From Gammaproteobacteria bacterium (GTDB taxonomy: Bacteria; Pseudomonadota; Gammaproteobacteria; Pseudomonadales; Halieaceae), in contig JAUIEP010000006.1 in assembly GCA_030428835.1 (NCBI GenBank), forward strand, positions 3,193-67,192: 64,000 nt of DNA, in the 5' to 3' direction. Each line of letters begins with the position of its first letter. Position 1 is the stretch's first letter. The notes under the pieces were generated by a model. That model saw only the letters and a program-made list of their open reading frames with translations, had not been told where the DNA came from and did no database searches. The translations under genes were made by a program, and so were the position numbers. Below are positions 15,040-60,590 of the stretch, in pieces.

Positions 15040-17748
15040 TCATTCGCCCGCTACGAAACGGCGGGTCTCGTCCAGGGCGTCCTGTGGCACCGTGCTGTCC
15101 GCGAACACCACGGTGTAAGTGAGGGTTTCCGGATTGAGTTCCTGCCAGCGCATCAGCGCCACCGCCTTGCGCCCCTCGGGCGTGATGGGCAGCTCGCCGC
15201 GCTCGTGCCGCGCGCGATCCTCGTTGAGCGCCGCACTCAGGTGGTCGTTCTTGACCTCCACGATCAGATACTTGCCATCCTTGCGCGCGATCACGAAATC
15301 CGGCGAGTAGCGGTGCCAGCGGCCGTCCTCGCCCTGGTACTCCGCGAAGAGCTCGGTCTTGCCCGGGTCGGTGAGGCCGCCGGTGAACCAGATGCCTTCT
15401 ATGGCCTCTGGCCGCTCCTGGATCATACCCAACACGCGCTCAAGATAGTCCGCCTCGGGCATCGAGTCGAAGTTATAGCCCTCATAGTGGAAGCTGCGCT
15501 CGCGCGCCAGGTCCGTGTTGGCCAGCTGGTCCGCCGTGCGGTACAGGTGGTGCCTGTCTTTCGCGAAGCTGATGCGCGCTGTGTAGACCGGCACGCCGCC
15601 GCGCAACCGGCGCGCAAAACCCTCGGGCTTGACCAGCGCGAGCGCCACATCCACCTCTTCGTGCCACGCCTCATAGTCACTGGTCTGCGCCTCGATCTGC
15701 GTGCCCAGTGCTTCCAGCTGGTATTCCGGAACACCGCGCTCCGGGCCGTAGGCGGCCGACAACGCGCGATGTACGAGCGCCGTCGGCAAGTGATAATTGG
15801 CGGCCAATTCCGTCGCGGCGCCGTAGAGGGAAAATTCGGTGTCGGCCAGTTGCAGGGCATCCTCACCGCCATCCACGCGCTGCATGCTCACCCGACCCTC
15901 GCGGTTCTCCACCATGGTCCAGGTGCTGACCAACGCCCTGGGTGCCTGCACTTCTGCGGGCTCGGAGAGTTCGAGGTGCTCCAAACCCGCCGCCTGTGCG
16001 CGGCGCCGAAAGCGCAGCAACGTCTTGCGCAGCACCAGCGGCGGCAGGTCGGGCTTGCGCAGCACCACCTCCTCCTCGATGCGCTCTGTAACGTCGCGGT
16101 TGAGCGCCTCAATTGTGGTGCCGTAGGTCTCTTCAAGCTGCTTCTGCAGCAGCGCGCGGTTGCCCTTGCTGACATATATCCGCGCGGGCGTGGTGTTGCC
16201 GGGCACCTGACGCAGGCAGCGCGTGGCCGCCTGCAGCACGAAGTTGTTGGACGTTTTAAGCTTGCGCACGAGGCCGCAGGCAAACAGCGACGGGCAGTTC
16301 CAGCCCTCCGTACCCATGTTGACCAGCAGTATCACGCGATAGGGGGAATCCGGGTCATTGGCCACCCGGTAGAACTCGCGGCGGGTTTCCTCCGGAGACT
16401 TGGAGTGCACGGCCAGCACCGTGGCGGCGTCCTGCCCGGCTTGCGCCAGCGCGCTGTCCACCGCCGGGCGCAACGCATCCATCGCGTCGGTTTGTGGGAA
16501 ATACAGCGCGAGTCTTGCAGGCGAGCCGTCGCGCAGGCGCACCTGCCAGTAGTCGCGCACAAAATCCGTTACGATTCGGCTGGTCAGCAGCCCCGAGTCG
16601 TCGTCATCGAGGTCAAAAACCTGGATGTTGTTCGCCACATCCTTCAACACGCCGTCCTTGATACCCTGCCCCAGGCTGTACCAGGCCACCACGTCGCGCA
16701 ACGGCTGGCGCTCGAAATAGGGTGTACCGGTGGTGTTAACCACCACCTTGAGACTGGTCTCGCGGGCAAGAAAATCCACCGTGCGCCGGACTTTCTTGAT
16801 CCCCTGCTCGACAAACTCCTGCTCGCCGGTGTCACGGTTGCGCTGCCATTTGCCGAGCAGTTTCTGGCCGTAGGTATGGTGAGCTTCATCGGAAAAAACG
16901 GCCAGGTCGGGCAGCGATGCGATAGTCGTGAGGCGCAGGTTGGCCTCCTCCTCGGCCTGCTCGTCCTTGCTGTCCAGATGCAGCGCGAGCTGCGCCTGGT
17001 TCGCTTTCTTGCCCGTAGGTTTCTGAATGCGGATTTTCTCGGTGTTGGTCACCACGATATTCCACTCACTGCCGCGCACCACGGGCAGTTCCTTCTCGCC
17101 ATCGCGCGTAAAGGTCAGCTTCAGCGTGGCTGCAAAGGGCGCGTACATGCGCGGCGGCAGTATCTGGTCATAGGGCACGTCCGCCAGCTCGCGCAGCGAT
17201 TCGATAATGGTCTTGCCAGGCGCGAAGATCAGGGCATTGCGGACGAAGGGAGCACCTTCTGCCGGGTACTCCTGCGCCATGGCGAACTCTGTCGCAGCAA
17301 TTGCGCCCATCAGAATGGTCTTACCGGCGCCCATGGCGAGTGCAAAGATGTAGCTGGGATACTGCAGCGCAAAAGTTTCGCGCAGGCTTTCCAGCTTGTG
17401 CTTGCGCACAAACTCATCGTCGGTTTGAACCTGTTTGATCAACGTGTCCAGGTCGTAGTCCGCAGCCTCGAATAGCTCAGCGGAAACGCCCATCGCCGCC
17501 AGACGCTCTTTGCGCGACTCAAACAGCTTGTCGTAGAGCGCGGGTACCGTTGGCGTACCGAGCTCAAGTCGGATATACCAGTAGGTCTCGAGCGCCTGAA
17601 ACTGCGCGCGTCGCAAAAAACGCAGACCACTGTCCTCCAGGCGCCCGTAATCCAACACCTCGCCGATGGCGGGAAAGTCCTCGGAGGGGTAACCGGCTTC
17701 CCGCCACTGGGAGACACGCTGGTCCAATGCCTGGTAAAGATGTGTCAT
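15040..17748 (-). CDS. res: Type III restriction endonuclease subunit (Res): DEAH helicase plus PD-(D/E)XK nuclease
   Basis: LAMGAGKT, SDEAHH, TTGTP, MGTEGWNCP, LQAATRCLR; C-terminal YSPDF...IVEVK. Start moved to ATG 17748. Confidence 0.85.
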   Translation of the reverse strand: MTHLYQALDQRVSQWREAGYPSEDFPAIGEVLDYGRLEDSGLRFLRRAQFQALETYWYIRLELGTPTVPALYDKLFESRKERLAAMGVSAELFEAADYDLDTLIKQVQTDDEFVRKHKLESLRETFALQYPSYIFALAMGAGKTILMGAIAATEFAMAQEYPAEGAPFVRNALIFAPGKTIIESLRELADVPYDQILPPRMYAPFAATLKLTFTRDGEKELPVVRGSEWNIVVTNTEKIRIQKPTGKKANQAQLALHLDSKDEQAEEEANLRLTTIASLPDLAVFSDEAHHTYGQKLLGKWQRNRDTGEQEFVEQGIKKVRRTVDFLARETSLKVVVNTTGTPYFERQPLRDVVAWYSLGQGIKDGVLKDVANNIQVFDLDDDDSGLLTSRIVTDFVRDYWQVRLRDGSPARLALYFPQTDAMDALRPAVDSALAQAGQDAATVLAVHSKSPEETRREFYRVANDPDSPYRVILLVNMGTEGWNCPSLFACGLVRKLKTSNNFVLQAATRCLRQVPGNTTPARIYVSKGNRALLQKQLEETYGTTIEALNRDVTERIEEEVVLRKPDLPPLVLRKTLLRFRRRAQAAGLEHLELSEPAEVQAPRALVSTWTMVENREGRVSMQRVDGGEDALQLADTEFSLYGAATELAANYHLPTALVHRALSAAYGPERGVPEYQLEALGTQIEAQTSDYEAWHEEVDVALALVKPEGFARRLRGGVPVYTARISFAKDRHHLYRTADQLANTDLARERSFHYEGYNFDSMPEADYLERVLGMIQERPEAIEGIWFTGGLTDPGKTELFAEYQGEDGRWHRYSPDFVIARKDGKYLIVEVKNDHLSAALNEDRARHERGELPITPEGRKAVALMRWQELNPETLTYTVVFADSTVPQDALDETRRFVAGE

Positions 17749-47976: not shown

Positions 47977-48103
47977 GTTATCTCGTATAAATCCCTGTAA
48001 TCAAAAGAATAAGTGTGTAACGTTTTTCAGGCCCCCAGGCCGCCAAGCACACGATTGCGCCACAGGCGCCCGCAGGCAACGGTCGCAACATCAGGGACAT
48101 TTG

Positions 48104-49810
48104 GTGGAAAAACAAACAATTCTGATCATTTCCGAGGAGCAGACGGACCACCTGATCCTCGCCGCCAGTCTCGAACGCGCCCGCCCACAGCGTTTCCAGA
48201 TGGCGACCGCGGAGTCGATGGAACGCCCCCTCGACGCACTGCTCGATCCCGCAATCGACGTCGTGATCATGGCCCATGGCCCACAGACCGAGTACCTGTT
48301 GCGCCTCGCCGCCAAGAACGAGGCCGCTGCGCCCATCATCGTGCTGCTGGATGAGGCGAACGACCAGACAGGGAAGCAGTTGCGTGACCTCGGCGCACAG
48401 GACTACCTCGTGCGCGGCCAGTTCCAGGACGCCCTGCTGCACCGCATCCTCGACTACAACGCGCAGCTCAAGCGCGCCCGGGAAAAAATCCAGCAACTGT
48501 CCAACCGTGACCCACTGACCGGTGCGCTGAACCGCGTCGGCTTCCGCGCGCACCTGGAACGCGCGATGGGCCGCTCCGCGCGCTACGGGTTCAACACCGC
48601 GTTGCTGTATATCAACATCGACCAGTTCGCCAACGTCAACGATCACTACGGCGAAGCGGACGGCGACGTGATGATCAAGTCCATCTCGCGGCGGCTGATC
48701 AACAAGATGCGCAGTACCGACAGCATCGCCCGCCTCGGTGGCGACGAGTTCGCCGTCGTGCTGGAGGATGTCAATTCCGCCCAGGACGTGGAGCAGATCG
48801 CCGAGAAAATGCTCAAGTCGATCGCCGCCCCGATGATCCTCTCCGACCAGCAGGTCGCCGTGGAGGCCAGTATCGGCGCCGCGATCTACCCGGAGGACGG
48901 CAAGGAGTTCGCCGACCTCGTGGAGCACGCACGCTCGGCGATGCAACAGGCCAAGACGATCCAGGGCGGCCAGTTCATCCGCTACTCCGAAAAGCTGACC
49001 TTCGACATCGCCGGCGGTAATTCACTCGCCGCCGAACTGCGTACCGCGGTGCGCAAAAACCAGTTCGAACTGCACTACCAGCCGCGCATCGACCTCGGCA
49101 CCGGCCACCTTGTGGGCCTGGAAGCACTGCTGCGCTGGAACCATCCCGAGAGGGGCCTGGTGGCACCGGGCGAGTTCCTGGTGGCCTGCGAGGACATGGG
49201 GCTGATGAAGACCATCGGCTACCAGGTCATCCAGCACGCCTGTAACGCACAGGTGTGGCTGGAAGAACAGAAGCTGCAGGGCGTGGACGTCGCCGTGAAC
49301 ATCTCCTTCTCGCAGATCCAGGACGACCGCTTCGTGGAAATCGTGAAGGACATCGTCCAGCGCAGCGGCGCCGACGCCTCGCGCCTGGAGTTCGAGCTCA
49401 CCGAGTCGACGATCCTGAAAAGCCCCGCCGGCATCAAGGCCCGGATGGACGAGCTGCGCGAAACCGGCATCTCGTTTTCACTGGATGACTTCGGTACCGG
49501 TTTCTCGCAGCTCACGCACCTCACGGAACTGCCGATATCGGCGCTCAAGATCGATGCTGTGTTTGTGCGTGACCTGACCAGCAACGAACACCAGGAAACG
49601 GTCTGCTGCATGATGATCGAGATGGGTCGACGCCTCGGGATGACCGTGATCGCGGAGGGCGCCGAAACGCACGAGCAGATCCAGTTCCTGCGTGAGAACA
49701 ACTGCCACCAGGTGCAGGGCTACTACTACAGCCCCGCCATTCCCCTCCAGCAGCTGCCCCGTTTCGTGCAGGACCTGCGCCACAAGCGGCAGGGCAAGCT
49801 GCTCTCCTGA
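48104..49810 (+). CDS. Pseudo-receiver-GGDEF-EAL protein
   Basis: REC-like N-terminus without the phospho-Asp; RSTD...RLGGDEF; LEALLRW; SLDDFGTG; AEGAE. Confidence 0.88.
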   Translation: MEKQTILIISEEQTDHLILAASLERARPQRFQMATAESMERPLDALLDPAIDVVIMAHGPQTEYLLRLAAKNEAAAPIIVLLDEANDQTGKQLRDLGAQDYLVRGQFQDALLHRILDYNAQLKRAREKIQQLSNRDPLTGALNRVGFRAHLERAMGRSARYGFNTALLYINIDQFANVNDHYGEADGDVMIKSISRRLINKMRSTDSIARLGGDEFAVVLEDVNSAQDVEQIAEKMLKSIAAPMILSDQQVAVEASIGAAIYPEDGKEFADLVEHARSAMQQAKTIQGGQFIRYSEKLTFDIAGGNSLAAELRTAVRKNQFELHYQPRIDLGTGHLVGLEALLRWNHPERGLVAPGEFLVACEDMGLMKTIGYQVIQHACNAQVWLEEQKLQGVDVAVNISFSQIQDDRFVEIVKDIVQRSGADASRLEFELTESTILKSPAGIKARMDELRETGISFSLDDFGTGFSQLTHLTELPISALKIDAVFVRDLTSNEHQETVCCMMIEMGRRLGMTVIAEGAETHEQIQFLRENNCHQVQGYYYSPAIPLQQLPRFVQDLRHKRQGKLLS

Positions 49811-49822
49811 CACCGCGCCAAT

Positions 49823-51097
49823 TTACGCATGGGCCACGCGATTGCGGCCCGCCTTCTTTGCCCTGTAGAGCTGCTGGTCCGCCGCGGCGATGACCGCCTC
49901 GGCATCGGGCGCGCCGGGGCCGCGCCCTGCGAGTCCCGCACTCACGGTGACCGACACCTGGTCGGTTCGCAGCCGCGTGGCACCCCGGCGCTTGCTGCCC
50001 TCCCTCGCCCTGGCGGGACGCAGCGTCCTGTCGCGCAGCGACATGCGATAGTCGGCGATCTCCTTGCGCACAGCCTCCAGGGCCGGCACACAGTCGCCCA
50101 CCTCGCGCCGCGGGAACACAATACAGAATTCCTCCCCACCGTAGCGGTAGGCGGTACCACCGGCGCCGACACGGCGTATGCGCGAGGCGACCAACCGGAG
50201 CACCTCGTCACCCACGTCATGGCCGTAGGTGTCGTTGAATTTCTTGAAATGATCGACGTCCAGCATGGCGATCGCGTATTGCCGGCCCAGCATCTTCAGC
50301 CGTTCGTTGAGCGCTCGACGCCCGGGCAGGCCCGTGAGGTCGTCCTTGTAGGCCATGGCGTGGGAGCTGCGCAGCAGCCCCCAAAGCAGGCACAACCCCG
50401 CCGCGCTGCACATGACCACCGACATGTTGTCCAGGTGGAGAAATGCGAGCGTGAGATACAGCGCAAAGAACGGCCCCAGGATAGCCACCTCCACCTCGTC
50501 GTCGCGCAGGCACAACAGCACCAGGCCAACGACCGCAACCAGCGACACCAGCAGGGTGGCGCCGCGCGACATGACATAGCCCTCCACCGGCCGCGGCGTG
50601 TAGTAGTCGAACGCCACCTGGTTGACCTCGGGCAGCCACGGACCCAACTGCACGCAGATCAGCGCCAGCATGATAAACGCGAGGGAACAGACAAAGCCGT
50701 AGAAGTTCCAGATCCCGCGCTCGGGTAGCAACAGTAGGTAGAAACACAACACGGGCAACGCGAGGCTCACGGCGAGGTAGGCGTACCACGCGGCAGGATC
50801 GGACAGGCTCACCTGCAGGTGCGTGCGCACAACCCAGTAGAAAGCGCCCACGGCGAACGCGGCAAGCATCAGGCGGCAGCGATTGAACTGGTACGCCATG
50901 AGCACGGCGATGAAGCAGAAGAGGTAGGGCAGATTGTCGATGAGCACCGTGAACTCTGGCCCGAGGGTTGCCGCGCGAGCGCGACTGAAATACGCCGCCA
51001 CGATGAGCGCGAGCGGCACGGACAACTTCAGCAATGCGGTCGGATACCAGAGCATCGCGCGGTAGCATTCTCCCCTGAAAAATGCCGGAATATTCAC
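49823..51097 (-). CDS. Membrane-bound diguanylate cyclase (GGEEF)
   Basis: Multiple TM segments; DDLTGL, MLDVDHFKKFNDTYGH, RYGGEEF; no RxxD I-site. Start may be ATG 51055. Confidence 0.9.
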   Translation of the reverse strand: MNIPAFFRGECYRAMLWYPTALLKLSVPLALIVAAYFSRARAATLGPEFTVLIDNLPYLFCFIAVLMAYQFNRCRLMLAAFAVGAFYWVVRTHLQVSLSDPAAWYAYLAVSLALPVLCFYLLLLPERGIWNFYGFVCSLAFIMLALICVQLGPWLPEVNQVAFDYYTPRPVEGYVMSRGATLLVSLVAVVGLVLLCLRDDEVEVAILGPFFALYLTLAFLHLDNMSVVMCSAAGLCLLWGLLRSSHAMAYKDDLTGLPGRRALNERLKMLGRQYAIAMLDVDHFKKFNDTYGHDVGDEVLRLVASRIRRVGAGGTAYRYGGEEFCIVFPRREVGDCVPALEAVRKEIADYRMSLRDRTLRPARAREGSKRRGATRLRTDQVSVTVSAGLAGRGPGAPDAEAVIAAADQQLYRAKKAGRNRVAHA

Positions 51098-51158
51098 GCT
51101 CCGGGCTGCGCCTGTGCGGTTGAAAGGTCTTATTTTGACTAGGCGCGAGGTCGCAGTA

Positions 51159-53024
51159 ATGATAGCCTACAAAGACGATTATAAGCAGTATCCATCCCTA
51201 CAAATGTCGACGAACGACTCCATTCGCCATCGGGCAAAAATCCTCGTAGTGGACGACGACCAGAACGTCCGTTTGCTGACCCGCCAATGTCTCGAAGCCG
51301 AAAGCATGACGGTGGTGGAAGCGTCCAACGGGCTCGAGGCGCTGGATATTTTCACGCGCGAGCGGCCGGACCTCGTTTTCCTCGATGTTGAGATGCCCGG
51401 CATGTCCGGTCTGGAAGCCTGTAAGCGCATCCGGGAGATGCCACAGGGCGAGTCCATTCCGATCATGATCGTGACGGGCTCGGACGATCGCGACTCTATC
51501 GACGCCGGATTCCAGGCGGGCGCCACGCAGTACAAGACCAAGCCGGTAAACTGGTCGTTACTGGGCCGCGACGTGCAGTACATGCTGCGCGCAAGCAACG
51601 CGTTCAACTCCCTTAAGCGGCAGGAAGACCGGCTGCGCTACCTGGCGTACTACGATCCGCTTACCAGCCTGCCCAATCGCCGCAGCTTCAACGAGCAACT
51701 CAACCGGATACTGAAGCGCGCTGCGCGCCATCGCACCTCCGCGGCGCTCATGTTTATCGACCTCGATCACTTCAAGCGCATCAACGACTCGATCGGTCAC
51801 GCACGCGGCGACAGCCTGTTGGTGGAGATCGCCAAGCGCCTGACGAACGAGCTGCGTGAAGACGACGCCATCAATTACTTCACCGACAACAGCGCGGAAG
51901 AAGAGTTGCAGGGCGTTGGAACCGAAATTGCGCGCCTGGGTGGCGATGAGTTCACAGTGGTGCTGTCAGACGTAGAGAGCGCCGGTGACATCGAGAAGGT
52001 GGCGCGCCGCATTCTCAACAGCCTGTCGGAACCGATCGCGCTACAGTCACACAACCCGGTGGTCACACCGAGTATCGGCATAGCGATCTATCCGCAGGAC
52101 GGTCGCGACCCCGACACGCTGATCCGCAACGCCGACACGGCAATGTACGTGGCCAAGGCGGAGGGCCGCGCCTGTTTCCGCTTCTACAACGAGGAGATGA
52201 ACGCCCAGGCGGTGGAACAGCTCAAGATGGAGGAAGAGTTGCGCGACGCCATGCGCAACCACGAGCTGGAGCTGCGTTACCAACCGCAGATCGATTCGAA
52301 CAGTGGCACAGTGATCAGCATGGAGGCACTGGTTCGCTGGAAGCACCCCACCCGCGGCATGGTGTCTCCGCAGGAATTCATCCCGGTGGCCGAGAGCACC
52401 GGCCTGATCATAGAGCTCGGCGAGTGGGTGATGGACGAGGTGGCCAGGCACTGCCTGTACTGGGATTCGCTCGGCCTGAAGTCATTCCGCGTGTGCGTGA
52501 ATATCTCGCCGCTGCAGTTCAACCAGAGGCACCTGGCGGACTGGGTCTCCGACTTCCTCGAGCGCTCCGGCCTGCCGCCCGAACGCCTCGAGCTGGAGCT
52601 GACCGAGAGCGCCATTATGACGGACGCGGAAACCAACATTGCCAAGCTTCGCGACCTCAAGAATCTGGGTGTAGACCTCGCCGTCGACGACTTCGGCACC
52701 GGTTACTCGTCGCTCAGCTATCTCAAGCGCTTCCCCATTGACACGCTGAAGATCGACCAGAGTTTCGTTTCCGACCTGGAAACACCCGACGGCGCCGCGA
52801 TCGTGGACGCCATACTCGCGCTGGCCAAGACCCTTAACCTGCGCGTGATTGCGGAAGGCATCGAAAACGAGTACCACCTCGCCCACCTCGTGCGCAGGGG
52901 TTGCGACCTGCTGCAGGGCTTTTACTTCGCCCGCCCGCTGTACCCGGAGGACGTACCCTCCATGCTGCGCGAGAACTACTCAAGGCAGATTCAGCAGGTG
53001 CTGAGGTCCGCCACCGTTTCCTGA
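51159..53024 (+). CDS. Response regulator REC-GGDEF-EAL
   Basis: Canonical REC (VVDDD, DLVFLDVEMP, IVTG, TKP); FIDLDHFKRIND, RLGGDEF; MEALVRW, DDFGTGYSSL. Start moved to ATG 51159 after GAGG. Confidence 0.92.
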   Translation: MIAYKDDYKQYPSLQMSTNDSIRHRAKILVVDDDQNVRLLTRQCLEAESMTVVEASNGLEALDIFTRERPDLVFLDVEMPGMSGLEACKRIREMPQGESIPIMIVTGSDDRDSIDAGFQAGATQYKTKPVNWSLLGRDVQYMLRASNAFNSLKRQEDRLRYLAYYDPLTSLPNRRSFNEQLNRILKRAARHRTSAALMFIDLDHFKRINDSIGHARGDSLLVEIAKRLTNELREDDAINYFTDNSAEEELQGVGTEIARLGGDEFTVVLSDVESAGDIEKVARRILNSLSEPIALQSHNPVVTPSIGIAIYPQDGRDPDTLIRNADTAMYVAKAEGRACFRFYNEEMNAQAVEQLKMEEELRDAMRNHELELRYQPQIDSNSGTVISMEALVRWKHPTRGMVSPQEFIPVAESTGLIIELGEWVMDEVARHCLYWDSLGLKSFRVCVNISPLQFNQRHLADWVSDFLERSGLPPERLELELTESAIMTDAETNIAKLRDLKNLGVDLAVDDFGTGYSSLSYLKRFPIDTLKIDQSFVSDLETPDGAAIVDAILALAKTLNLRVIAEGIENEYHLAHLVRRGCDLLQGFYFARPLYPEDVPSMLRENYSRQIQQVLRSATVS

Positions 53025-53032
53025 TTGCCGCG

Positions 53033-55018
53033 ATGACCCGCCGCAGGCTGACTGCGCTCGCCGCCCTCCTTCTCCTGTCAGTTGACATCGCTGTAAGCGC
53101 CGGCGACGCGCGGCTGCAGGTGTTGCTGCAGGGCGAGTCCGCGAGCGACATTGCGGCGCTCGTGCGCGATACGGGCGGCGAGGTCACCCATGACCTGCAT
53201 ATCATCAACGCCGTCGGCGCACTGGTCACTGCAGCGCAGTTGGCGGAGCTGAAACGCTCCACATTGATCAGCCGCACCATAGACGACCTCGCACACCTCG
53301 ACGAGAGGGCGCCACGTGAGGACACGCAAACATGCCGCGTGCGCGGGCATATCGAACTCGACCTCACTGAGGACGGATTCCGCTGGCGGCTCTACAACAA
53401 GCGTGCCGAACCCGCGCACCTGGAGCGCATTGCACTCAACTGGCCCGCTCAGCTCGGCGCCCTCGAAGAGTTGCGCCTCGACCGGCAGGTACTGCACTTG
53501 GAACCAACGCAACGCGACAAGCATACCGGGATGACCGTGGAGGTGCCGACCGGACGGCTCCCCGTTATCAGGCAACGCGCCGAACTGGTTGCGCGCTTCT
53601 CCAAACCCACGGCGCAGGACGGATTCAATGCCCACCAACGCGACTTCGGCATTGAACTCGGCTTTGCCGCTGGATGCGGCGACAAACTCGTGCCCGCATA
53701 CGATGACAACGCCCACGACTATTACTACAACCGCGTCTCTGGCGTGGAGCGACTGCACCAACAGGGAATCACCGGCAAGGGAGTGACCGTGGCGGTGATC
53801 GACTCGGGCCTGTGGGAGCACGACGCCCTGGCGCTCGATACCACGGGCAAACCCCGCATCGTCGGGCGTTACGACGCTATCCACGACGTGGCGGGCAAGA
53901 CCGCCCGCGATGAGAGCGGCCACGGCACCCACATGACCAGCATTATCGCCAACAGCGCGAGCACGCTCGTTGCGGGCAAAGCCAACGGCAGCTACCGCGG
54001 CGTCGCACCCGATGCCAACCTCGTGGCGGTGAAGGTGCTTGACAAGGGCGGCCTGGCACACCTCCTTGAGATCGTGCGCGCGGTCCAATGGGTAGTGGAG
54101 CAACGCGAGGCACTGAACATACGCGTACTCAACCTGTCATTTGCGCGGACCCCTGGATGGTTGTACTGGGAAGATCCCGTAAACCAGTCTGTTATGCGCG
54201 CCTGGGATGCCGGCATTACAGTGCTCGCGGCGGCGGGCAACGAGGGCCCGGATGACGGCAGCGTGGGCTCTCCCGGCAATACCCCCTATGTCATCACGGT
54301 CGGCGCGGTAACCGATTCGTGGACACCGGAAACCCGCGCGGATGACTACGTGCCCGACTTCTCATCGCGAGGCCCTACCAACAGCGGCCACATCAAGCCG
54401 GACCTGGTAGCGCTCGGCGGGCACATGACAGGCTTGATCAATCCCGATTCGGCCATGGCGATCGAGCAGCCGGAGGACATATTGCGTGGTGGCGAGTTCG
54501 TTTCCACGGGTTCCTCACAGGCGACCGCCTTCGCCTCCGGCGTGGTGGCCCTGCTGCTGCAGTTGGAACCGGGGCTCACACCGGATGACATCAAGTGCAA
54601 ACTGATCTCTAGCGCCGAGCCGGCGATAAATCGCGATGGCCGCCTGGCCTACAGCCCCTTCCAGCAGGGCTACGGCTACCTCAACCCAGTCAGGGCGATT
54701 ACCCTCGGCCGAACAGGCTGTGGGAACGAGGAATGGGACATCACAACCGAATGGAACGGCGGCGGGCACTACAGCGGGCCCGCTATCATGGCGGAAGATG
54801 GCAGTGCCAGCCTGCCTGGCATGACTGACTTCGTGGACCCCCACCCCAGCGAGGAGGGCTACAGCGACAACCGCGTGTGGGGGGTTAAAGGCCATATCGA
54901 GCGACTGGATTCCAATAAAGAACTACCACAATCAACAAAAAACCCTTACGACTGGTACAGGCTGTATCTGATGGAGAAGGAGCGCATCGAAAACCTGGCC
55001 CGCCAGCCATCAAAATAG
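53033..55018 (+). CDS. Secreted S8 (subtilisin-like) serine peptidase
   Basis: Signal peptide from ATG 53033; triad VAVIDSG, GHGTH, TGSSQA; oxyanion AAAGN; KPDLVALG. Confidence 0.9.
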   Translation: MTRRRLTALAALLLLSVDIAVSAGDARLQVLLQGESASDIAALVRDTGGEVTHDLHIINAVGALVTAAQLAELKRSTLISRTIDDLAHLDERAPREDTQTCRVRGHIELDLTEDGFRWRLYNKRAEPAHLERIALNWPAQLGALEELRLDRQVLHLEPTQRDKHTGMTVEVPTGRLPVIRQRAELVARFSKPTAQDGFNAHQRDFGIELGFAAGCGDKLVPAYDDNAHDYYYNRVSGVERLHQQGITGKGVTVAVIDSGLWEHDALALDTTGKPRIVGRYDAIHDVAGKTARDESGHGTHMTSIIANSASTLVAGKANGSYRGVAPDANLVAVKVLDKGGLAHLLEIVRAVQWVVEQREALNIRVLNLSFARTPGWLYWEDPVNQSVMRAWDAGITVLAAAGNEGPDDGSVGSPGNTPYVITVGAVTDSWTPETRADDYVPDFSSRGPTNSGHIKPDLVALGGHMTGLINPDSAMAIEQPEDILRGGEFVSTGSSQATAFASGVVALLLQLEPGLTPDDIKCKLISSAEPAINRDGRLAYSPFQQGYGYLNPVRAITLGRTGCGNEEWDITTEWNGGGHYSGPAIMAEDGSASLPGMTDFVDPHPSEEGYSDNRVWGVKGHIERLDSNKELPQSTKNPYDWYRLYLMEKERIENLARQPSK

Positions 55019-55242
55019 GTCAAAAAATAGCCCGATCCTGACGTCGTAGAGCTCCACTCTAACCTTCCTGGGGCAGTGCAATGCTGGCGCCACACTGCTT
55101 CTGGAATTAAGCTTTAAAACAATGAGTTAGCCCGCTCATCACGCGCACCCCGCAGCGCCTTCACACCCCCTCCCGGGCCTGCCCAAAACAGGGCACATAT
55201 TTTTCTTCAATTTCGGTCACCAAAGTAGTGTAATGGTGTCAA

Positions 55243-55322
55243 GCATTCTCGGAGAAGAATGCGAACTCCGTCCCCCGCAGGGACACATTAGGAGACTTGT
55301 GTCACACCATGCGCGAGCATGG
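55243..55322 (+). promoter_or_regulatory. Structured 5' leader with several short hairpins upstream of the repeat-protein gene
   Basis: GCATTCT/AGAATGC, GTCCC/GGGAC, GACACA/TGTGTC, CCATGC-GCGA-GCATGG read directly. Confidence 0.35.
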
Positions 55323-55349
55323 CTTTGTAAAAAAGAAGGCAGGAAAATC

Positions 55350-55892
55350 ATGAAAACCATGAAAAAGGTTGGGTACGCTAGTATTGCAGGCCTTGCGCTT
55401 GCACTGCTCACCCCTTCCCTGAGCATGGCCGATAGTGCTTTTGATCGATCGGGAAGCTCGGAAGGGAGTACGGTTCATCGCATTAGCCATGACCTGGCCA
55501 TGAATGAAAGCTACACGCTGACATCTGCTTCAGGGAATCGTTGGGGTAAAGAGGCGGTGCCTACTCTTCGGGATTCCAGCTGGGCTACTGAAGCCCGTGC
55601 TCAAGGTGGAAACCGTTGGAGTCATACTCCGTCAGAGACGAGTCAAGCGAGTAGCTCAGACTTTGCCAAGAAGTCAGGCAACCGCTGGCGTCGCAGCGAC
55701 AATGCTGAGCAGGCCGGCAACCGCTGGCGTCGCAGCGACATCGCTGAGCAAGCCGGCAACCGCTGGCGTCGCAGCGACATCGCTGAGCAAGCCGGCAACC
55801 GCTGGCGTCGCAGTGACATCGCTGAGCAAGCCGGCAACCGCTGGCGTCGCAGTGATTTTGCGGAGCAAGCCGGCAATCGCTGGCGTAGATAG
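55350..55892 (+). CDS. Small secreted protein (180 aa) with eight GNRW motifs and six C-terminal 13-aa repeats ending in RR; candidate multi-copy peptide precursor
   Basis: AGGA RBS; Sec-type signal MKTMKKVGYASIAGLALALLTPSLSMA; repeats vary mostly at synonymous positions; followed by a terminator. Confidence 0.8.
   Translation: MKTMKKVGYASIAGLALALLTPSLSMADSAFDRSGSSEGSTVHRISHDLAMNESYTLTSASGNRWGKEAVPTLRDSSWATEARAQGGNRWSHTPSETSQASSSDFAKKSGNRWRRSDNAEQAGNRWRRSDIAEQAGNRWRRSDIAEQAGNRWRRSDIAEQAGNRWRRSDFAEQAGNRWRR
55656..55889 (+). repeat. Six contiguous 39-bp tandem repeats encoding SD(F/N/I)A(EQA/KKS)GNRWRR
   Basis: Units start at 55656, 55695, 55734, 55773, 55812, 55851; TAG follows immediately at 55890. 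Confidence 0.95.
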
Positions 55893-55968
55893 GTAGTCTG
55901 CAGCATTAGCCTCGGGCCTTAACGCAAATTCTGAGCTTATCTAGGCGAACGAATTTCGGCCATCGATG

Positions 55969-56008
55969 AAAAAGCCGCGCTGGGAAGCCTTCCCCGGCAC
56001 GGCTTTTT
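55969..56008. terminator. Intrinsic, probably bidirectional terminator
   Basis: AAAAAGCCG...GGGAA-GCC-TTCCC...CGGCTTTTT: GC stem with A- and T-tracts, 77 nt after the repeat-protein stop. Confidence 0.8.
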
Positions 56009-56108
56009 GTTGCCTGATTATTTACACTAAATTCAATAGATGCTTTCCATTGGATCAATTACACTCCAGCGTATCTTTCTTATGATTCAATGAGTTAGAC
56101 GAAATTCC

Positions 56109-59100
56109 GTGACGGTGCGCCTCATTATTCTCATCACGTTGTCGGTGATGGCCTCCGCTCCAATCCATGCAGTCGTCGCGGACAAGCCGCCTTTAAACTT
56201 AGAACTCTATCCAACGGCATTTTCCGACAAGCTGACCCAGCATTCTGTTTTGCAAGTCTTCCAAGACTCGCAAGGCGCTATGTGGTTCGTTACCCAGGAA
56301 GGCTTAAACAGGTACACGGGAAATGAGCTAGAAAACTTTCGTTACAGCTCGAACAATCCAAACTCCCTGCCCACAAATACAATTTCTGAGCTTACTGAAG
56401 ACCACTCAGGGCGAATCTGGCTCGCTACAAGAGAAGCAGGAATCGTCTTCTACGACCCGATCGACGAATCTTTTAAGGCATTTTTGTCCAATCCAAACGA
56501 TCGGAATACACCCTATAGCAATGACGTAAGAAGCATATTTACCGATTCTCGAGGCGTCCTGTGGTTAGGTTATAACGGTGCTTTCAGCAGTTTTTCATCA
56601 AAGGAAAGCAAATTTCATCATTATGTTCCTTCAAATATGGACTTGCCGCCAACTGGAGAAATCAGCGCATTTGCGGAGACAGAAGATGGGAACATTTGGA
56701 TCGCCACACAACAAAGTGGCCTGATTCGATTAAACCCCACCACCAATAATTGGGAGTTAGCCACACCTCCGAATGAGTTGGAATCTTTTTCGGACCTAGG
56801 CTGGATCACTGACCTAAAGGTGGACAAAAAGGGCCGTTTGTGGATTGGAACTCGAGAACGAGGCGTCTATTTCCTGGACATCAATACGTTCAATTTAGAA
56901 TCGTTCCGACACTCCGCTGAGGATAGAAACTCCCTTTCTTCCGACCGTGTTACCAACATTTACCAAGACAATGACCTGAACATTTGGATCGCAACTGAGA
57001 GCGGCTTAAGCCTATTTAGCGAAGCCGGCAAAAATTTCTATCGATACTCGACCTTTAACACCAATTTGCCCGAGGACCTCGTTATAAGCATCTATCAATC
57101 GCGCGAGGGGAAATATTGGGTTGGAACCATGTCAGAACTTGCATCTGGGATGAAAACAAACTTTGAGAAATATGATCAAACGCGGTCTTCGCTCTCGAAC
57201 AACTCTGTAAATGCATTTACTGAAACGCCAGATGGGTCACTATGGGTTGGAACAGATGACGGCCTAAACGTACAGGCATACAACGAAACTGACTTTACCT
57301 GGATAAACGAATCCACTTCTCCATATCTATCAGATAGCCGTGTAATGAGCCTCCTAGGAGAGCAGGATACGCTCTGGGTTGGCACATACTCAGGCGGCTT
57401 AAACAAATTGTCTCTCTCTACCAGCGAAACTAAAGTATTTAAGCATAGCAATCTGGATGGAAACTCTATAAGCGCGAATGGCATTACCGACATCTATCGA
57501 ACGTCAAGCGGAGAACTACTAATAGGAACCTATGGAGGCGGGGTTAGCGTGTATCACGAGGGAGAAGAGTACTTCACCAATTACCAAAGGGACACGATCA
57601 ACCAGAACTCAATTAGTAGTAATTTCGTGCTTGATATATTCGAAGATTCACTTGGGCTAGTTTGGATTGGAACGGAAAATGGTCTTAACCGTTTTGATCT
57701 ACAGAGCCGGACATTTACCCGTTACTTCGGGAGTCGTGAGAAGCACAATACTTTTTCCAGCAACATACCCTGGGCTTTCCTAGAAGACAGTGACGGGACT
57801 CTATGGATTGGAACGTCTGGTGGTGGAGTTAATCTATGGAAACTGGAAGATAGAAAGTCAAACAAAGTAAATATAGTGCAGCTTTCTGACTATATATCGC
57901 TGCCCAGCGCCAATATTTACGGCATTCAGGAAGACTCGACTAGGCGAGTATGGATATCTCACGGAAAAGGAATAACTAGCGTTCAACTTGATACATTCGA
58001 GGTGCACCATTATGGAATTCGCGACGGCTTGCAGGCAAACGAATTTACATTGGGTGCATCGTACAAGATGAGTGACGGAAAACTGCTTTTTGGAAGCGTG
58101 CGCGGTTATAACGGCTTCTATCCATCTCAAATAAAAGCAGATCGCGTTCCGCCGAAAGTTTCGATCTCGCAAATTCTAGTCATGGACGAACGTCGCGACT
58201 TTGGCGCTCCATATAATCAGCTAAAGTCTATAGATCTAGAGTACCAAGACCAGATGGTATCCATAGAGTTTTTTGCGGCAGACTATGCAAACCCAGACCT
58301 ACTCAATTACGCTTATAAATTAGAAGGTCTTAATCCTGACTGGCTGATTTCGCCGGACTCAAGAATTGCCCGTTTTACAACTCTTCCGCCAGGTTCCTAT
58401 ACACTGAGACTTGCAGCGGCCAGCCCTGACGGGACTTGGAATTGGGACGGCGCAAGCATTGATATTAACGTTGCGCCTCCGCCTTGGCAGAGTCCCGCGG
58501 CTTATGCTCTCTACATGGTCTTCGTCGCATTTTCTATCTATTACTATTGGAGCAGACAGCGCCGCAAGGAACTGGAGGCAATCGAAAGGCAACGCGAACT
58601 TGAAGAAAAAGTAGAGGAGCGCACCCGAGATCTTGAGATCGCAAGAAATATTGCCGAAGACGCAACTAAGGCAAAATCAGATTTCCTAGCAACAATGAGC
58701 CATGAAATCAGAACTCCAATGCACGGCATCATTGGCATGACCCAACTGTTGCTGCACACCAACCTGAGTAATCAGCAAAAGCAATTCGCTAACGCAGCTA
58801 AGAGTAGCGGCGAATCATTACTGAGTCTGATAAATGAAATACTCGACTTCTCAAAAATTGAAGCAGCAAAGGTCGATATCGAAAATGTCGAATTTGACTT
58901 GACTAATTTAATGGATGATATCTGCTATTTACAAAGTGAGCCTGCAAGCAAGAGCGGAATTGATCTGAACAATATTTGTCATCCAGCAACGCCAAAGAGC
59001 CTTATTGGAGACCCAACAAAAACTAGACAGGTCGTAATGAACCTAGTCACTAACGCCATCAAGTTTACCCCAGAAGGAAACGTGAATGTACGTGTCGAGC

Positions 59101-60590
59101 CAACCTTTCCACCAGCAGATAGGACAAAGTGTGTTGCAATAATCACTGTTGAGGACACTGGGATAGGGATGGACAGTGCTACTCAGTCACGAGTCTTTGA
59201 GCCTTTTACTCAGGCAGATGCAAGCACTACAAGGAAATACGGGGGCACAGGCTTAGGGCTTTCTATATCGAGAAAATACATTGAGCTAATGGGCGGAGAT
59301 ATTGCTGTGCGGTCGTCCCCAGGAAAGGGTACAAAAATCACGGTGACACTTCCATTTCAAATCGCTCCTTCTCCTAAAAGAAGTGTTTCAAAGCTCGTAT
59401 ACAAGACGGCAAGGGCGTATACGAACAACCTTTACACTTTCGAAATGATAGAGTCACACCTGCGTCGATTTGGAATTTCCTGCGCGCGAGGACTGCAGGA
59501 GGAGTTGCCTGTTTTTGCCCCCCCCGATGAGGAAATTATTTTCGTCGACTACGACGAAGAGCTAATTGACTTGATAAGCCGAAACCCCAGATCAGAGTCG
59601 CTTCGAGAACAGACAGTTCTGCTAGTAGGTTTGCACAATAAGCCTACAGTAGACGTTACTGCGAAGTGGGCGACAACCACTAAACCTATTACGAGCCTTT
59701 CTTTGTATGATTGTCTAAGCTCAACGAGTTGTAATAAAAATCGTTCAGTACGTGGTGCCAACACCAATCACAGTTTGTCAGGCAAAAACGAGAGAAAAGC
59801 GAGCATTCTCGTAGCGGAGGACGTCAGTACGAATCAGGCAATAATCAGAGAGATGCTTCAAATCCTTGGGCATAGTGTAGATATTGCAGAGAACGGAGAG
59901 TCTGCTCTTGGCAAGTACTTTTCTGGCAGCTACGACCTTATTTTTATGGACTGCCAAATGCCGATTGTGGACGGATATACGGCTACCCGCAGAATTCGTG
60001 AGCACGAGCACTGTAATGATTTGTCGATGACCCCAATTATAGCGCTCACGGCTGGTTCAGATGTTCAAGATCGAGAAAGGTGCAAGATCGCCGGAATGAA
60101 CGATTATATCGCAAAGCCCTTCAGCATTGATGAAATCGCTGCCAGTATCGAAACATACGCAAAAAGCATCGACCAAAGGGAAACCGAATCACCAGATAGA
60201 AACGAAATTCATTCCAAAACAGATATAAGCGAAGTAGCAATAGTGGACCGCAACATTCTCGATGGGCTACGCGATATCGAGCGCCAAACGGGAAAACTGC
60301 TCATCCCTGAATTGTTAGATGGTTATATAGAACAAATGATCGGCAAGCTAGAGGAGTTGCATTCCTCGATAAATCAAATGAACTACGAATTAATCTACCA
60401 GCACTCGCATGCCATTAAATCAATGAGTGCAAATCTTGGCGCAGAACATGTCAAAGAAATAAGTGCGCAAATCGAACTTGAAGGTAGAAAAAAGAGAGGC
60501 ACGGCCCTGGCTGAGTTATTCAACGAACTAGAAAGCGCATACAATCAATTCGTTGAATCATTCCGATCGGAGGTGATCGAGAACACCTAG
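56109..60590 (+). CDS. Hybrid sensor histidine kinase: periplasmic beta-propellers + Y_Y_Y, HisKA, HATPase, two REC, Hpt
   Basis: Many propeller repeats (DSQGAMWF, GRLWIGT, GSLWVGTDDGL); NYAYKLEG; TM; FLATMSHEIRTP, NLVTNAIKFT, DTGIG, GGTGLGL; DLIFMDCQMP; Hpt HAIKSMSANLGA. Confidence 0.92.
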   Translation: MTVRLIILITLSVMASAPIHAVVADKPPLNLELYPTAFSDKLTQHSVLQVFQDSQGAMWFVTQEGLNRYTGNELENFRYSSNNPNSLPTNTISELTEDHSGRIWLATREAGIVFYDPIDESFKAFLSNPNDRNTPYSNDVRSIFTDSRGVLWLGYNGAFSSFSSKESKFHHYVPSNMDLPPTGEISAFAETEDGNIWIATQQSGLIRLNPTTNNWELATPPNELESFSDLGWITDLKVDKKGRLWIGTRERGVYFLDINTFNLESFRHSAEDRNSLSSDRVTNIYQDNDLNIWIATESGLSLFSEAGKNFYRYSTFNTNLPEDLVISIYQSREGKYWVGTMSELASGMKTNFEKYDQTRSSLSNNSVNAFTETPDGSLWVGTDDGLNVQAYNETDFTWINESTSPYLSDSRVMSLLGEQDTLWVGTYSGGLNKLSLSTSETKVFKHSNLDGNSISANGITDIYRTSSGELLIGTYGGGVSVYHEGEEYFTNYQRDTINQNSISSNFVLDIFEDSLGLVWIGTENGLNRFDLQSRTFTRYFGSREKHNTFSSNIPWAFLEDSDGTLWIGTSGGGVNLWKLEDRKSNKVNIVQLSDYISLPSANIYGIQEDSTRRVWISHGKGITSVQLDTFEVHHYGIRDGLQANEFTLGASYKMSDGKLLFGSVRGYNGFYPSQIKADRVPPKVSISQILVMDERRDFGAPYNQLKSIDLEYQDQMVSIEFFAADYANPDLLNYAYKLEGLNPDWLISPDSRIARFTTLPPGSYTLRLAAASPDGTWNWDGASIDINVAPPPWQSPAAYALYMVFVAFSIYYYWSRQRRKELEAIERQRELEEKVEERTRDLEIARNIAEDATKAKSDFLATMSHEIRTPMHGIIGMTQLLLHTNLSNQQKQFANAAKSSGESLLSLINEILDFSKIEAAKVDIENVEFDLTNLMDDICYLQSEPASKSGIDLNNICHPATPKSLIGDPTKTRQVVMNLVTNAIKFTPEGNVNVRVEPTFPPADRTKCVAIITVEDTGIGMDSATQSRVFEPFTQADASTTRKYGGTGLGLSISRKYIELMGGDIAVRSSPGKGTKITVTLPFQIAPSPKRSVSKLVYKTARAYTNNLYTFEMIESHLRRFGISCARGLQEELPVFAPPDEEIIFVDYDEELIDLISRNPRSESLREQTVLLVGLHNKPTVDVTAKWATTTKPITSLSLYDCLSSTSCNKNRSVRGANTNHSLSGKNERKASILVAEDVSTNQAIIREMLQILGHSVDIAENGESALGKYFSGSYDLIFMDCQMPIVDGYTATRRIREHEHCNDLSMTPIIALTAGSDVQDRERCKIAGMNDYIAKPFSIDEIAASIETYAKSIDQRETESPDRNEIHSKTDISEVAIVDRNILDGLRDIERQTGKLLIPELLDGYIEQMIGKLEELHSSINQMNYELIYQHSHAIKSMSANLGAEHVKEISAQIELEGRKKRGTALAELFNELESAYNQFVESFRSEVIENT

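Follow-up and report, generated by a model that had tools for sequence, protein, structure and literature searches.

Tandem 13-residue repeat proteins of Halieaceae switch their unit together with the adjoining sensor kinase: a candidate peptide precursor beside a subtilisin-type protease

Peptide signalling by pherotype is a hallmark of Gram-positive bacteria, and the general view is that cell-cell signalling in Gram-negative bacteria depends on small molecules. In Bacillus, the Phr pro-peptides are exported through the Sec pathway and the active peptide, which forms the C-terminus of the open reading frame (ORF), is freed extracellularly by the S8 proteases subtilisin, Epr and Vpr. The yeast alpha-factor precursor consists of a signal peptide, a pro-region and tandem 13-residue copies, the last of which ends at the stop codon, and it is processed within the S8 clan. 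A third arrangement is that of ExoR-ExoS/ChvI and CpxP-DegP-CpxA, where the activity of a sensor kinase is governed by an accessory protein in the periplasm that is in turn subject to proteolytic control. Here we describe a repeat protein encoded at 55350..55892 in a 64,000-nucleotide stretch from a gammaproteobacterium of the Halieaceae (contig JAUIEP010000006.1, positions 3,193 to 67,192; hereafter the window), the gene of which lies between those of an S8 protease and a hybrid histidine kinase, all on the forward strand. Between near-identical strains, the repeat unit and the kinase are exchanged together. We read the protein, with not quite an even chance of being right, as a polyprotein precursor that would be cut by the S8 protease into peptides sensed by the co-inherited kinase, thereby feeding the control of cyclic di-GMP (c-di-GMP).

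The window ORF encodes 180 amino acids followed by a stop, has homologues, and is preceded by a ribosome-binding site, AAGGCAGGA, at 55336-55344. Residues 1-27 (55350..55430, ending ...SLSMA|DS) form a Sec-type signal peptide by sequence inspection, the N-terminus MKTMKKVGYASIAGLALALLTPSLSMA|DS having the corresponding n/h/c layout as judged by eye, and this layout is common to all homologues. After the signal peptide comes a leader of about 75 residues with the motif VHRISHDLA (55473..55499; family consensus VHRVSHxLA), of which V42, H43, R44, H47, L49 and A50 are invariant among the aligned sequences. The leader also contains two degenerate motifs, SGNRWGK (55530-55550) and GGNRWSH (55605-55625), and G[YFN][KR]W motifs stand at equivalent places in the leaders of other family members. 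The remainder is an array of six tandem 13-residue units of 39 nucleotides each (55656..55889), in the order SDFAKKSGNRWRR, SDNAEQAGNRWRR, three times SDIAEQAGNRWRR and SDFAEQAGNRWRR, for which Tandem Repeats Finder reports a period of 39, 5.4 copies, 94% matches and a score of 350. All six units end in Arg-Arg, and the stop codon follows directly after the last of these. A terminator-like GC hairpin (55979-55998) with a T-run (together 55979..56008) lies behind the gene. An earlier note, made from the letters of the window, had described this ORF with its ribosome-binding site, Sec-type signal and own terminator, and the sequence bears this out; the six units, the Arg-Arg before the stop and the two degenerate GNRW motifs are exactly as it listed them. 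It had further proposed that the peptide rather than the DNA repeat is conserved, given that units 4 and 6 are set apart by five synonymous codon changes (AGC/AGT, GAC/GAT, GCT/GCG, AAC/AAT and CGC/AGA) and by a single amino-acid change (ATC/TTT). This codon count is correct, but units 3 and 4 have the same DNA and unit 5 is one base off, so that the window alone is a thin basis on which peptide-level selection and recent duplication cannot be told apart.

Across the family, the proposal holds. When the units were compared within each of 74 arrays, the proportion of synonymous differences (pS) was 0.381 against 0.051 for nonsynonymous differences (pN), a ratio of 0.13, and pS exceeded pN in 72 of the 74. 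Unit positions 5 and 7-13 are the most constrained (pN <=0.016), with positions 1-4 and 6 less so. Within arrays, positions 7-13 are 99.6% identical, against only 48.5% between them, and the 74 arrays hold 47 distinct versions of this heptad. The copies within a gene are thus held alike in protein sequence, whereas the version adopted varies from gene to gene. AlphaFold2, run on a shallow alignment of 19 sequences, gave the repeat protein a predicted local distance difference test score (pLDDT) of 45.5 and a predicted template-modelling score (pTM) of 0.10, which lends no support to a folded solenoid or repeat domain; the protein is predicted to be intrinsically disordered. The picture of a secreted, disordered protein carrying multiple copies of a peptide-sized unit is therefore supported, with the signal peptide recognised by inspection and the disorder by prediction.

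The repeat protein belongs to an undescribed and unannotated family, in agreement with the earlier note, which had recognised no characterised one. No Pfam or NCBIfam model fits the window protein and Rfam yielded nothing real, ten diverse family members matched no Pfam family, and literature searches on the motifs and on the gene combination found no paper. Nominal above-cutoff Pfam matches (3HCDH, HTH_AraC) were rejected, as they have no significant single stretch and are summed over the repeats. UniRef labels a member from Sediminihaliea albiluteola (P0146, WP_182175114.1) as a 'YXWGXW repeat-containing protein'; a Pfam scan does not reproduce the label, and PF12779 (YXWGXW) matches neither the window protein nor the ten diverse members even at E<=1. 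A word-indexed search returned 21 close relatives, and a profile search of 1.84 billion representative proteins returned 149 clusters (50% identity) at E<=1e-3, 109 of them at E<=1e-10. All are built on one plan, in which the signal peptide is followed by a leader that holds one or two aromatic-(K/R)-W motifs, with VHRVSHxLA in addition in the closer relatives, and by a C-terminal array of 13-residue units. Wherever members or their neighbouring protease come from named organisms, these are all Halieaceae, namely Halioglobus, Haliea, Parahaliea, Sediminihaliea and Luminiphilus (including strain NOR51-B). A pattern scan of GTDB DNA had also suggested more distant hosts, which we rejected: the Ktedonobacteria matches (L018, L019) are an unrelated Q/P-rich membrane FHA-domain protein with QQQPANPWGAP repeats, and the Flavobacteriales locus (L013) has no such repeat ORF and no match to the proteins of the window module.

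The period is 13 in 142 of 165 sequences, the arrays hold between 2 and 19 units, and the family consensus reads S-x-A-[DE]-Q-[AST]-G-[YNF]-[KR]-W-G-[ILV]-R, with Q and W invariant in every unit. Among 155 unit types, Lys or Arg stands just before the Trp in 92% and three residues past it in 79%; the commonest endings are GIR, GLR and GVR, and some units end in GIL or GLL. In 31 of 42 complete metagenome ORFs, the stop comes exactly three residues past the last Trp. The earlier note had taken the Arg-Arg boundary as the organising principle, and this did not survive the family-wide survey of units, in which homologues lack it: a dibasic pair after the Trp occurs in 14 of the 155 unit types (9%), and the usual ending is W-G-[ILV]-R. 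The GNRW-RR unit of the window is a type of the Halioglobus/Haliea sub-group, and close relatives of the window protein have RRR or GRR endings. Frameshifted or extended C-termini past the array were seen in L008/L020, L023 and P0012, and in L008 the protease and DUF3604 genes are split as well; these look like long-read assembly errors rather than decay. Among the metagenome loci L036-L115, 17 arrays run off the contig and 9 further loci end before the array. As contigs break in or before the tandem array, the family is badly under-sampled in protein databases relative to its protease neighbour, and such breaks hide genes of this kind from them.

In the window, the genes follow one another in the order GGDEF-EAL, GGDEF (reverse strand), REC-GGDEF-EAL, S8 protease, repeat gene, hybrid kinase and second sensor, and very divergent members with the units STADQSIYKWGIR, NDASQAASRWIIR and SASEQQGFRWGIR occupy an equivalent module. 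To assess the linkage, 80 metagenome loci were gathered with the protease, not the repeat, as probe. A repeat-family ORF lies directly 3' of the S8 gene in 71 of the 80, and the nine loci without one all have less than 660 nucleotides 3' of the S8 gene. A homologue of the REC-GGDEF-EAL gene lies directly 5' of the S8 gene in all 66 loci with enough sequence, and a kinase homologue lies 3' of the repeat gene in 20 of the 23 loci with at least 3 kb downstream. The linkage of the module reaches down to 43% S8 identity. The association with an S8 protease and a sensor kinase, for which the earlier note had proposed a synteny check, is thus very strong, and the family clearly does not occur without any protease or sensor neighbour. 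A Halioglobus subclade (L001, L004, L008, L017, L043, L044 and L064), to which the three loci without a downstream kinase belong, has no kinase adjoining the repeat gene, which is followed by DUF3604 or sulfatase genes instead; this loss was seen at the locus only, no search for a relocated receptor having been made. Other neighbours met in the cluster surveys are NadA, an M48 peptidase and DUF3604.

The evidence that most directly ties the unit to the kinase comes from loci with 99-100% identical S8 proteases, which often bear different units (GTRWMIR versus ASRWIIR, ASRWVMR versus RARWLIR, and AASRWIIR versus TGSRWVIR). In such pairs, DNA identity is 96-100% across the REC-GGDEF-EAL gene, the S8 gene and the intergenic region, drops abruptly to about 50% within the repeat ORF or where it begins, and remains low across the kinase gene. 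In four pairs, the leaders match fully or almost so as far as the first unit; the break lies earlier in the leader in one further pair, and two pairs lack any common 12-residue stretch in the ORF. Where 8 kb were available on each side, in the comparison of L077 with L082 and L095, identity is 96% to position 10267, the next 7.2 kb are unalignable except for a 65% patch in the kinase core, and identity returns to 94-100% from position 17498; a cassette has thus been replaced between two conserved flanks. Each allele is found in three or four independent assemblies, and an assembly chimera was rejected as the cause of the drop since alleles recur and identity returns past the cassette. Among pairs with at least 95% S8 identity, the kinase sensor is 87-100% identical in the eight that share the heptad and 41-48% identical in the ten that do not, so that all 18 fit the switching of unit and sensor together without exception, a one-residue difference (IIR versus VIR) included. 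The histories of cassette and backbone also disagree: L032 and L109, both with AASRWIIR, have kinase DNA 78% identical, above the 72.7% of their backbone, while L110 and L032 share a 99-100% identical backbone and only about 50% identical kinase DNA, and the kinase DNA of L110 and L109 gave no blastn alignment. By comparison, phylogeny-controlled correlations of peptide distance with sensor or S8 distance are weak (partial correlations 0.16-0.39), and the near-isogenic comparison is far more informative than global covariation. Between the kinase stop and the return of the backbone, about 2 kb hold no ORF of at least 150 residues in L077 (15448-17498), L082 (15419-17546) and L095 (6800-8972); this stretch has no Ns and a GC content of 0.46, and could be what is left of a second sensor gene that decayed within the cassette.

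In these respects, the locus resembles the ComQXPA system of Bacillus and the staphylococcal agr system, in which the signal gene lies beside that of its sensor kinase and a signal-receptor segment is hypervariable in otherwise near-identical genomes. In Bacillus, the polymorphism of comQXP is striking, with 65-70% nucleotide identity between comQ clusters and gyrA approximately 100% identical (PMC4408185). In Halieaceae, the corresponding values are 96-100% for the flanks and about 50% for the cassette; as expected of a pherotype locus, the putative signal gene adjoins the kinase gene in the window and in 20 of 23 loci, and putative signal and receptor are polymorphic together in the 18 pairs, with both flanks kept in L077 versus L082/L095. 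The likeness is without sequence homology, however, and the differences are considerable. The bacteria are Gram-negative, the putative precursor carries tandem units in one Sec-exported polyprotein where the known systems have a single peptide, and the locus has no ComQ or AgrB-type modifying enzyme. Furthermore, the sensor is a periplasmic twin propeller and not a polytopic membrane domain, the whole kinase is swapped rather than its sensor part alone, and the output is likely c-di-GMP.

The hybrid histidine kinase (56109..60590, 1493 residues) is composed of periplasmic Reg_prop propellers and a Y_Y_Y domain, followed by HisKA, HATPase_c, REC and Hpt domains. Its sensor domain matches BT4663 (4A2L) at E 1.8e-79. 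In the passage of a review that lists it, the BT4663 structure (PDB 4A2L/4A2M) is given without a ligand (PMC8534201). The two proteins share homologous Reg_prop propellers and the Y_Y_Y periplasmic domain, but BT4663 ends in an AraC-type DNA-binding domain, whereas the C-terminus of the Halieaceae kinase has Response_reg and Hpt domains and no helix-turn-helix domain according to Pfam; moreover, the latter lies beside a protease and a repeat protein and not in a polysaccharide utilisation locus. Its HisKA-HATPase-REC-Hpt architecture suits a relay to the REC-GGDEF-EAL protein, a pairing suggested by adjacency only. Downstream, the window encodes a second Reg_prop/Y_Y_Y sensor protein of 1054 residues (60766..63930) with HATPase_c and no HisKA match in Pfam; some relatives (L030) have this protein and others (L032) lack it. 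On the other side of the protease, the REC-GGDEF-EAL protein (51114..53024, 636 residues; Pfam Response_reg, GGDEF and EAL) is encoded with its stop 8 nucleotides 5' of the S8 start. It is the last of three consecutive c-di-GMP turnover genes 5' of the protease, the others being GGDEF-EAL (48101-49810) and GGDEF (49823-51097, reverse strand).

The secreted protease (53033..55018; Pfam Peptidase_S8, E 2e-47) has 661 residues when counted from the ATG at 53033, the mechanical ORF start being a TTG at 52901. Its layout comprises a signal peptide, an I9-like propeptide, a beta-sandwich insert, the catalytic domain with an intact triad (D257/H297/S495) and a C-terminal extension, and the AlphaFold2 model is confident (pLDDT 89, pTM 0.90). 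The best matches in sequence and fold are pro-Tk-SP (3afg) and pro-subtilisin E, with kexin and furin structures absent from these best matches. In alignment with subtilisin BPN', N403, E404 and G412 fall on N155, E156 and G166, and Pfam finds Peptidase_S8 only, without a P-domain. From the Glu156/Gly166 equivalents, the lack of a P-domain and the subtilisin matches, the enzyme is of the subtilisin type and not a kexin, and could accept a large hydrophobic or a basic residue at P1. The C-terminal extension carries a segment, NRVWGVK (residues 613-619; 54869..54889), whose consensus in an alignment of orthologues, R-[RK]-W-G-[VA]-[KA]-x-H, resembles the repeat core [YN]-[KR]-W-G-[IV]-[RK]. This pseudo-unit is modelled at a pLDDT of about 89, and R614, W616 and G617 are invariant in 41 orthologues. 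It does not co-vary with the type of repeat unit and is a constant motif, which fits a protease that would read the constant (K/R)-W-G and leave the variable part to another reader. The pseudo-unit may be an auto-processing site or an autoinhibitory pseudo-substrate.

Given these properties, the locus can be set beside the processed precursors known from other organisms. With Bacillus Phr it shares a Sec-exported precursor, a C-terminal peptide and an S8 protease; Phr, however, provides one (rarely a few) pentapeptide that is re-imported via Opp and acts on cytoplasmic Rap, and the window locus has no Rap or Opp genes. Like yeast alpha-factor, the repeat protein has a signal peptide, tandem copies and a last copy at the stop codon. 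The analogy with Kex2 drawn in the earlier note nevertheless fails for the enzymology: Kex2 belongs to the S8B kexins, which have a P-domain and an acidic S1 pocket, and cleaves at Lys-Arg, whereas the protease here lacks the P-domain, resembles pro-subtilisins most closely and carries S1 residues of the subtilisin type, and 91% of the Halieaceae unit types do not have the dibasic site. The cyanobactin precursor PatE is likewise a multi-core precursor with a dedicated S8 protease in one cluster, but cyanobactins mature in the cytoplasm and PatE lacks a Sec signal. Against the PatA/PatG model TIGR03895, the S8 protease scored 30.8 bits, not reaching the cutoff of 421, and no heterocyclase or macrocyclase is encoded among the neighbours at the Halieaceae loci surveyed.

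The repeat gene itself fits an own transcription unit between two terminator-like hairpins, the one behind it and another after the S8 gene (55180-55195, with its T-run 55180..55204), which is part of a block conserved in 41 loci. Alignment of 41 distinct upstream regions revealed a conserved block at 55225..55248, with TGTAAT at 55229-55234, and the consensus CGTATAA....GTCAAGCATC, followed by TCACA at about 55300. Scanning these blocks gave no simple sigma-70 consensus match; the block at 55225-55248 looks like the promoter of the repeat gene, and the blocks could also be a regulator binding site. In three metatranscriptomes, contigs 90-96% identical to the window cover 55260-55826 and nothing else within 54800-56200, and a fourth run has a single short contig inside the repeat gene. 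Coverage of the repeat gene alone fits a separate and relatively abundant mRNA, although the metatranscriptome data show presence in RNA libraries and not expression level. Some Luminiphilus-type contigs span the S8 gene into the repeat gene.

Taken as a working model, the Sec-exported and disordered polyprotein, with its signal peptide, leader and n copies of one 13-residue cassette, would, after export, most likely be cleaved by the S8 protease at one site in each unit. This site might lie after the residue at the end of the unit, usually an Arg three residues past the Trp, in which case the final copy would need no cut and the position of the stop codon would be explained. It might equally lie after the invariant Trp, with the three trailing residues serving as prime-side contacts, which would explain why exactly three of them remain. 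Either register would free n copies of one peptide of about 13 residues. This peptide, or possibly the array itself, would be the ligand of the periplasmic twin-propeller/Y_Y_Y domain of the kinase, and the reader of the variable unit positions is most plausibly this co-inherited kinase. Its His-Asp-His relay would then feed the REC-GGDEF-EAL protein and set c-di-GMP, and the joint exchange of unit and kinase among near-identical strains would create strain-specific 'dialects' comparable to Gram-positive pherotypes. Here we speculate that the system might be a Gram-negative peptide pheromone with dialects, in which a dedicated subtilase would cut the polyprotein into many copies of one 13-mer and a co-evolving propeller kinase would read the peptide and pass the signal on as c-di-GMP, so that marine Halieaceae could couple kin or density recognition to the choice between attached and free life; we regard this wider reading as possible, if rather doubtful.

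Several points weigh against the polyprotein reading and its extension to a pheromone. Cleavage and the released peptide are inferred from sequence, and a basic unit end, although common (79% Lys or Arg), is not universal given the GIL and GLL ends. A peptide of about 1.5 kDa should not freely cross the outer membrane; an intercellular role would need routes of export and re-entry, and the signal may not leave the periplasm. BT4663, the relative of the kinase sensor whose structure has been solved, presumably binds a glycan or glycosaminoglycan fragment. As for the exchange, it takes in the entire kinase down to the Hpt domain (27-51% identity over the full length of the protein), while the REC-GGDEF-EAL protein, the supposed relay partner, stays constant. 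The adjacency of unit and kinase alone could partly produce their co-inheritance, and the phylogeny-corrected relation between peptide and sensor distance over all loci is weak (partial r about 0.23). The Halioglobus subclade that has no kinase at the locus keeps its units under purifying selection. Finally, the Luminiphilus module appears at even contig depth in four other metatranscriptomes with no special expression seen; this even depth, like the spanning contigs, could reflect co-transcription or DNA carry-over.

Part of this evidence would serve other explanations equally well. Both the synteny and the switching of unit and kinase together are as readily expected if the intact, disordered array were itself functional, as a multivalent periplasmic partner or inhibitor of the kinase sensor that the S8 protease removes or tunes. 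Predicted disorder and a copy number of 2-19 suit such multivalency, the outer membrane poses no problem, and the logic would be that of ExoR-ExoS and CpxP; the latter proteins, however, are folded (ExoR with Sel1 repeats) and have no tandem identical cassettes or known strain-specific exchange. We consider a functional intact array unlikely overall, though it is the leading alternative. The ORF ends at a unit boundary in most members and positions 7-13 are kept 99.6% identical within arrays, both of which would be easier to understand if every unit were a product of its own, and 2-19 tethered copies give no fixed stoichiometry. A different partner is suggested by the pairing with the S8 protease, which holds wherever it could be assessed while the kinase is absent in some lineages, and by the pseudo-unit that the protease carries. 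The repeat protein might accordingly be a decoy or pseudo-substrate of the protease, or an adhesive or matrix protein trimmed under c-di-GMP control, and the kinase would sense another ligand such as a glycan, in keeping with its homology to BT4663, which we take to be a glycan sensor. However, this leaves unexplained why the unit switches only with the kinase while the S8 protease stays 99-100% identical, and a protease that read the variable positions should co-vary with them, which it does not; we hold this explanation to be quite unlikely.

Two further explanations concern how the peptides would be made. In the window, every unit ends in Arg-Arg and the ORF stops after the last pair, and together with the RRR or GRR endings of close relatives this recalls the proposal of the earlier note that kexin-like cleavage at the dibasic site frees SDxAEQAGNRW(RR) 13-mers, as in yeast alpha-factor. 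As a rule for the family, Kex2 or dibasic logic is rejected on the unit endings, with the pair in only 14 of 155 unit types, and on the subtilisin-like S1 residues of the protease; since the latter also lacks a P-domain and does not find kexin or furin among its best matches, we consider this route very unlikely. The arrangement of a leader with a conserved motif ahead of repeated cores, in which Q and W are invariant, would also be compatible with a multicore precursor of a peptide that is made on the ribosome and modified after translation (RiPP), whose cores would be modified (for example at Trp or an N-terminal Gln) by enzymes encoded elsewhere to give an antimicrobial or metal-binding product instead of a signal. 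This strikes us as most improbable, as no RiPP modifying enzyme was found at any of more than 100 loci inspected, the Sec signal points to export at a stage when any maturation in the cytoplasm would not normally be complete, and the units of the window are approximately net neutral in charge.

By analogy, the repeat protein, which lies outside every known family examined, has its nearest functional parallel in the pherotype loci of Gram-positive bacteria, here built on a polyprotein of the eukaryotic style within a Gram-negative host and with c-di-GMP as the probable output. If true, this would be the first bacterial counterpart of the eukaryotic polyprotein design of pro-hormones. The module of protease, multi-copy precursor, kinase and c-di-GMP enzyme is conserved across an entire family of abundant coastal bacteria, the OM60/NOR5 clade, and as there are cultured members, among them Luminiphilus syltensis NOR5-1B, Parahaliea aestuarii, Sediminihaliea albiluteola and Halioglobus sp. 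Uisw_031, the question is directly testable. Should the peptides prove to be real signals, they would represent a new route into the control of c-di-GMP, and kin discrimination in the ocean would gain a new basis.

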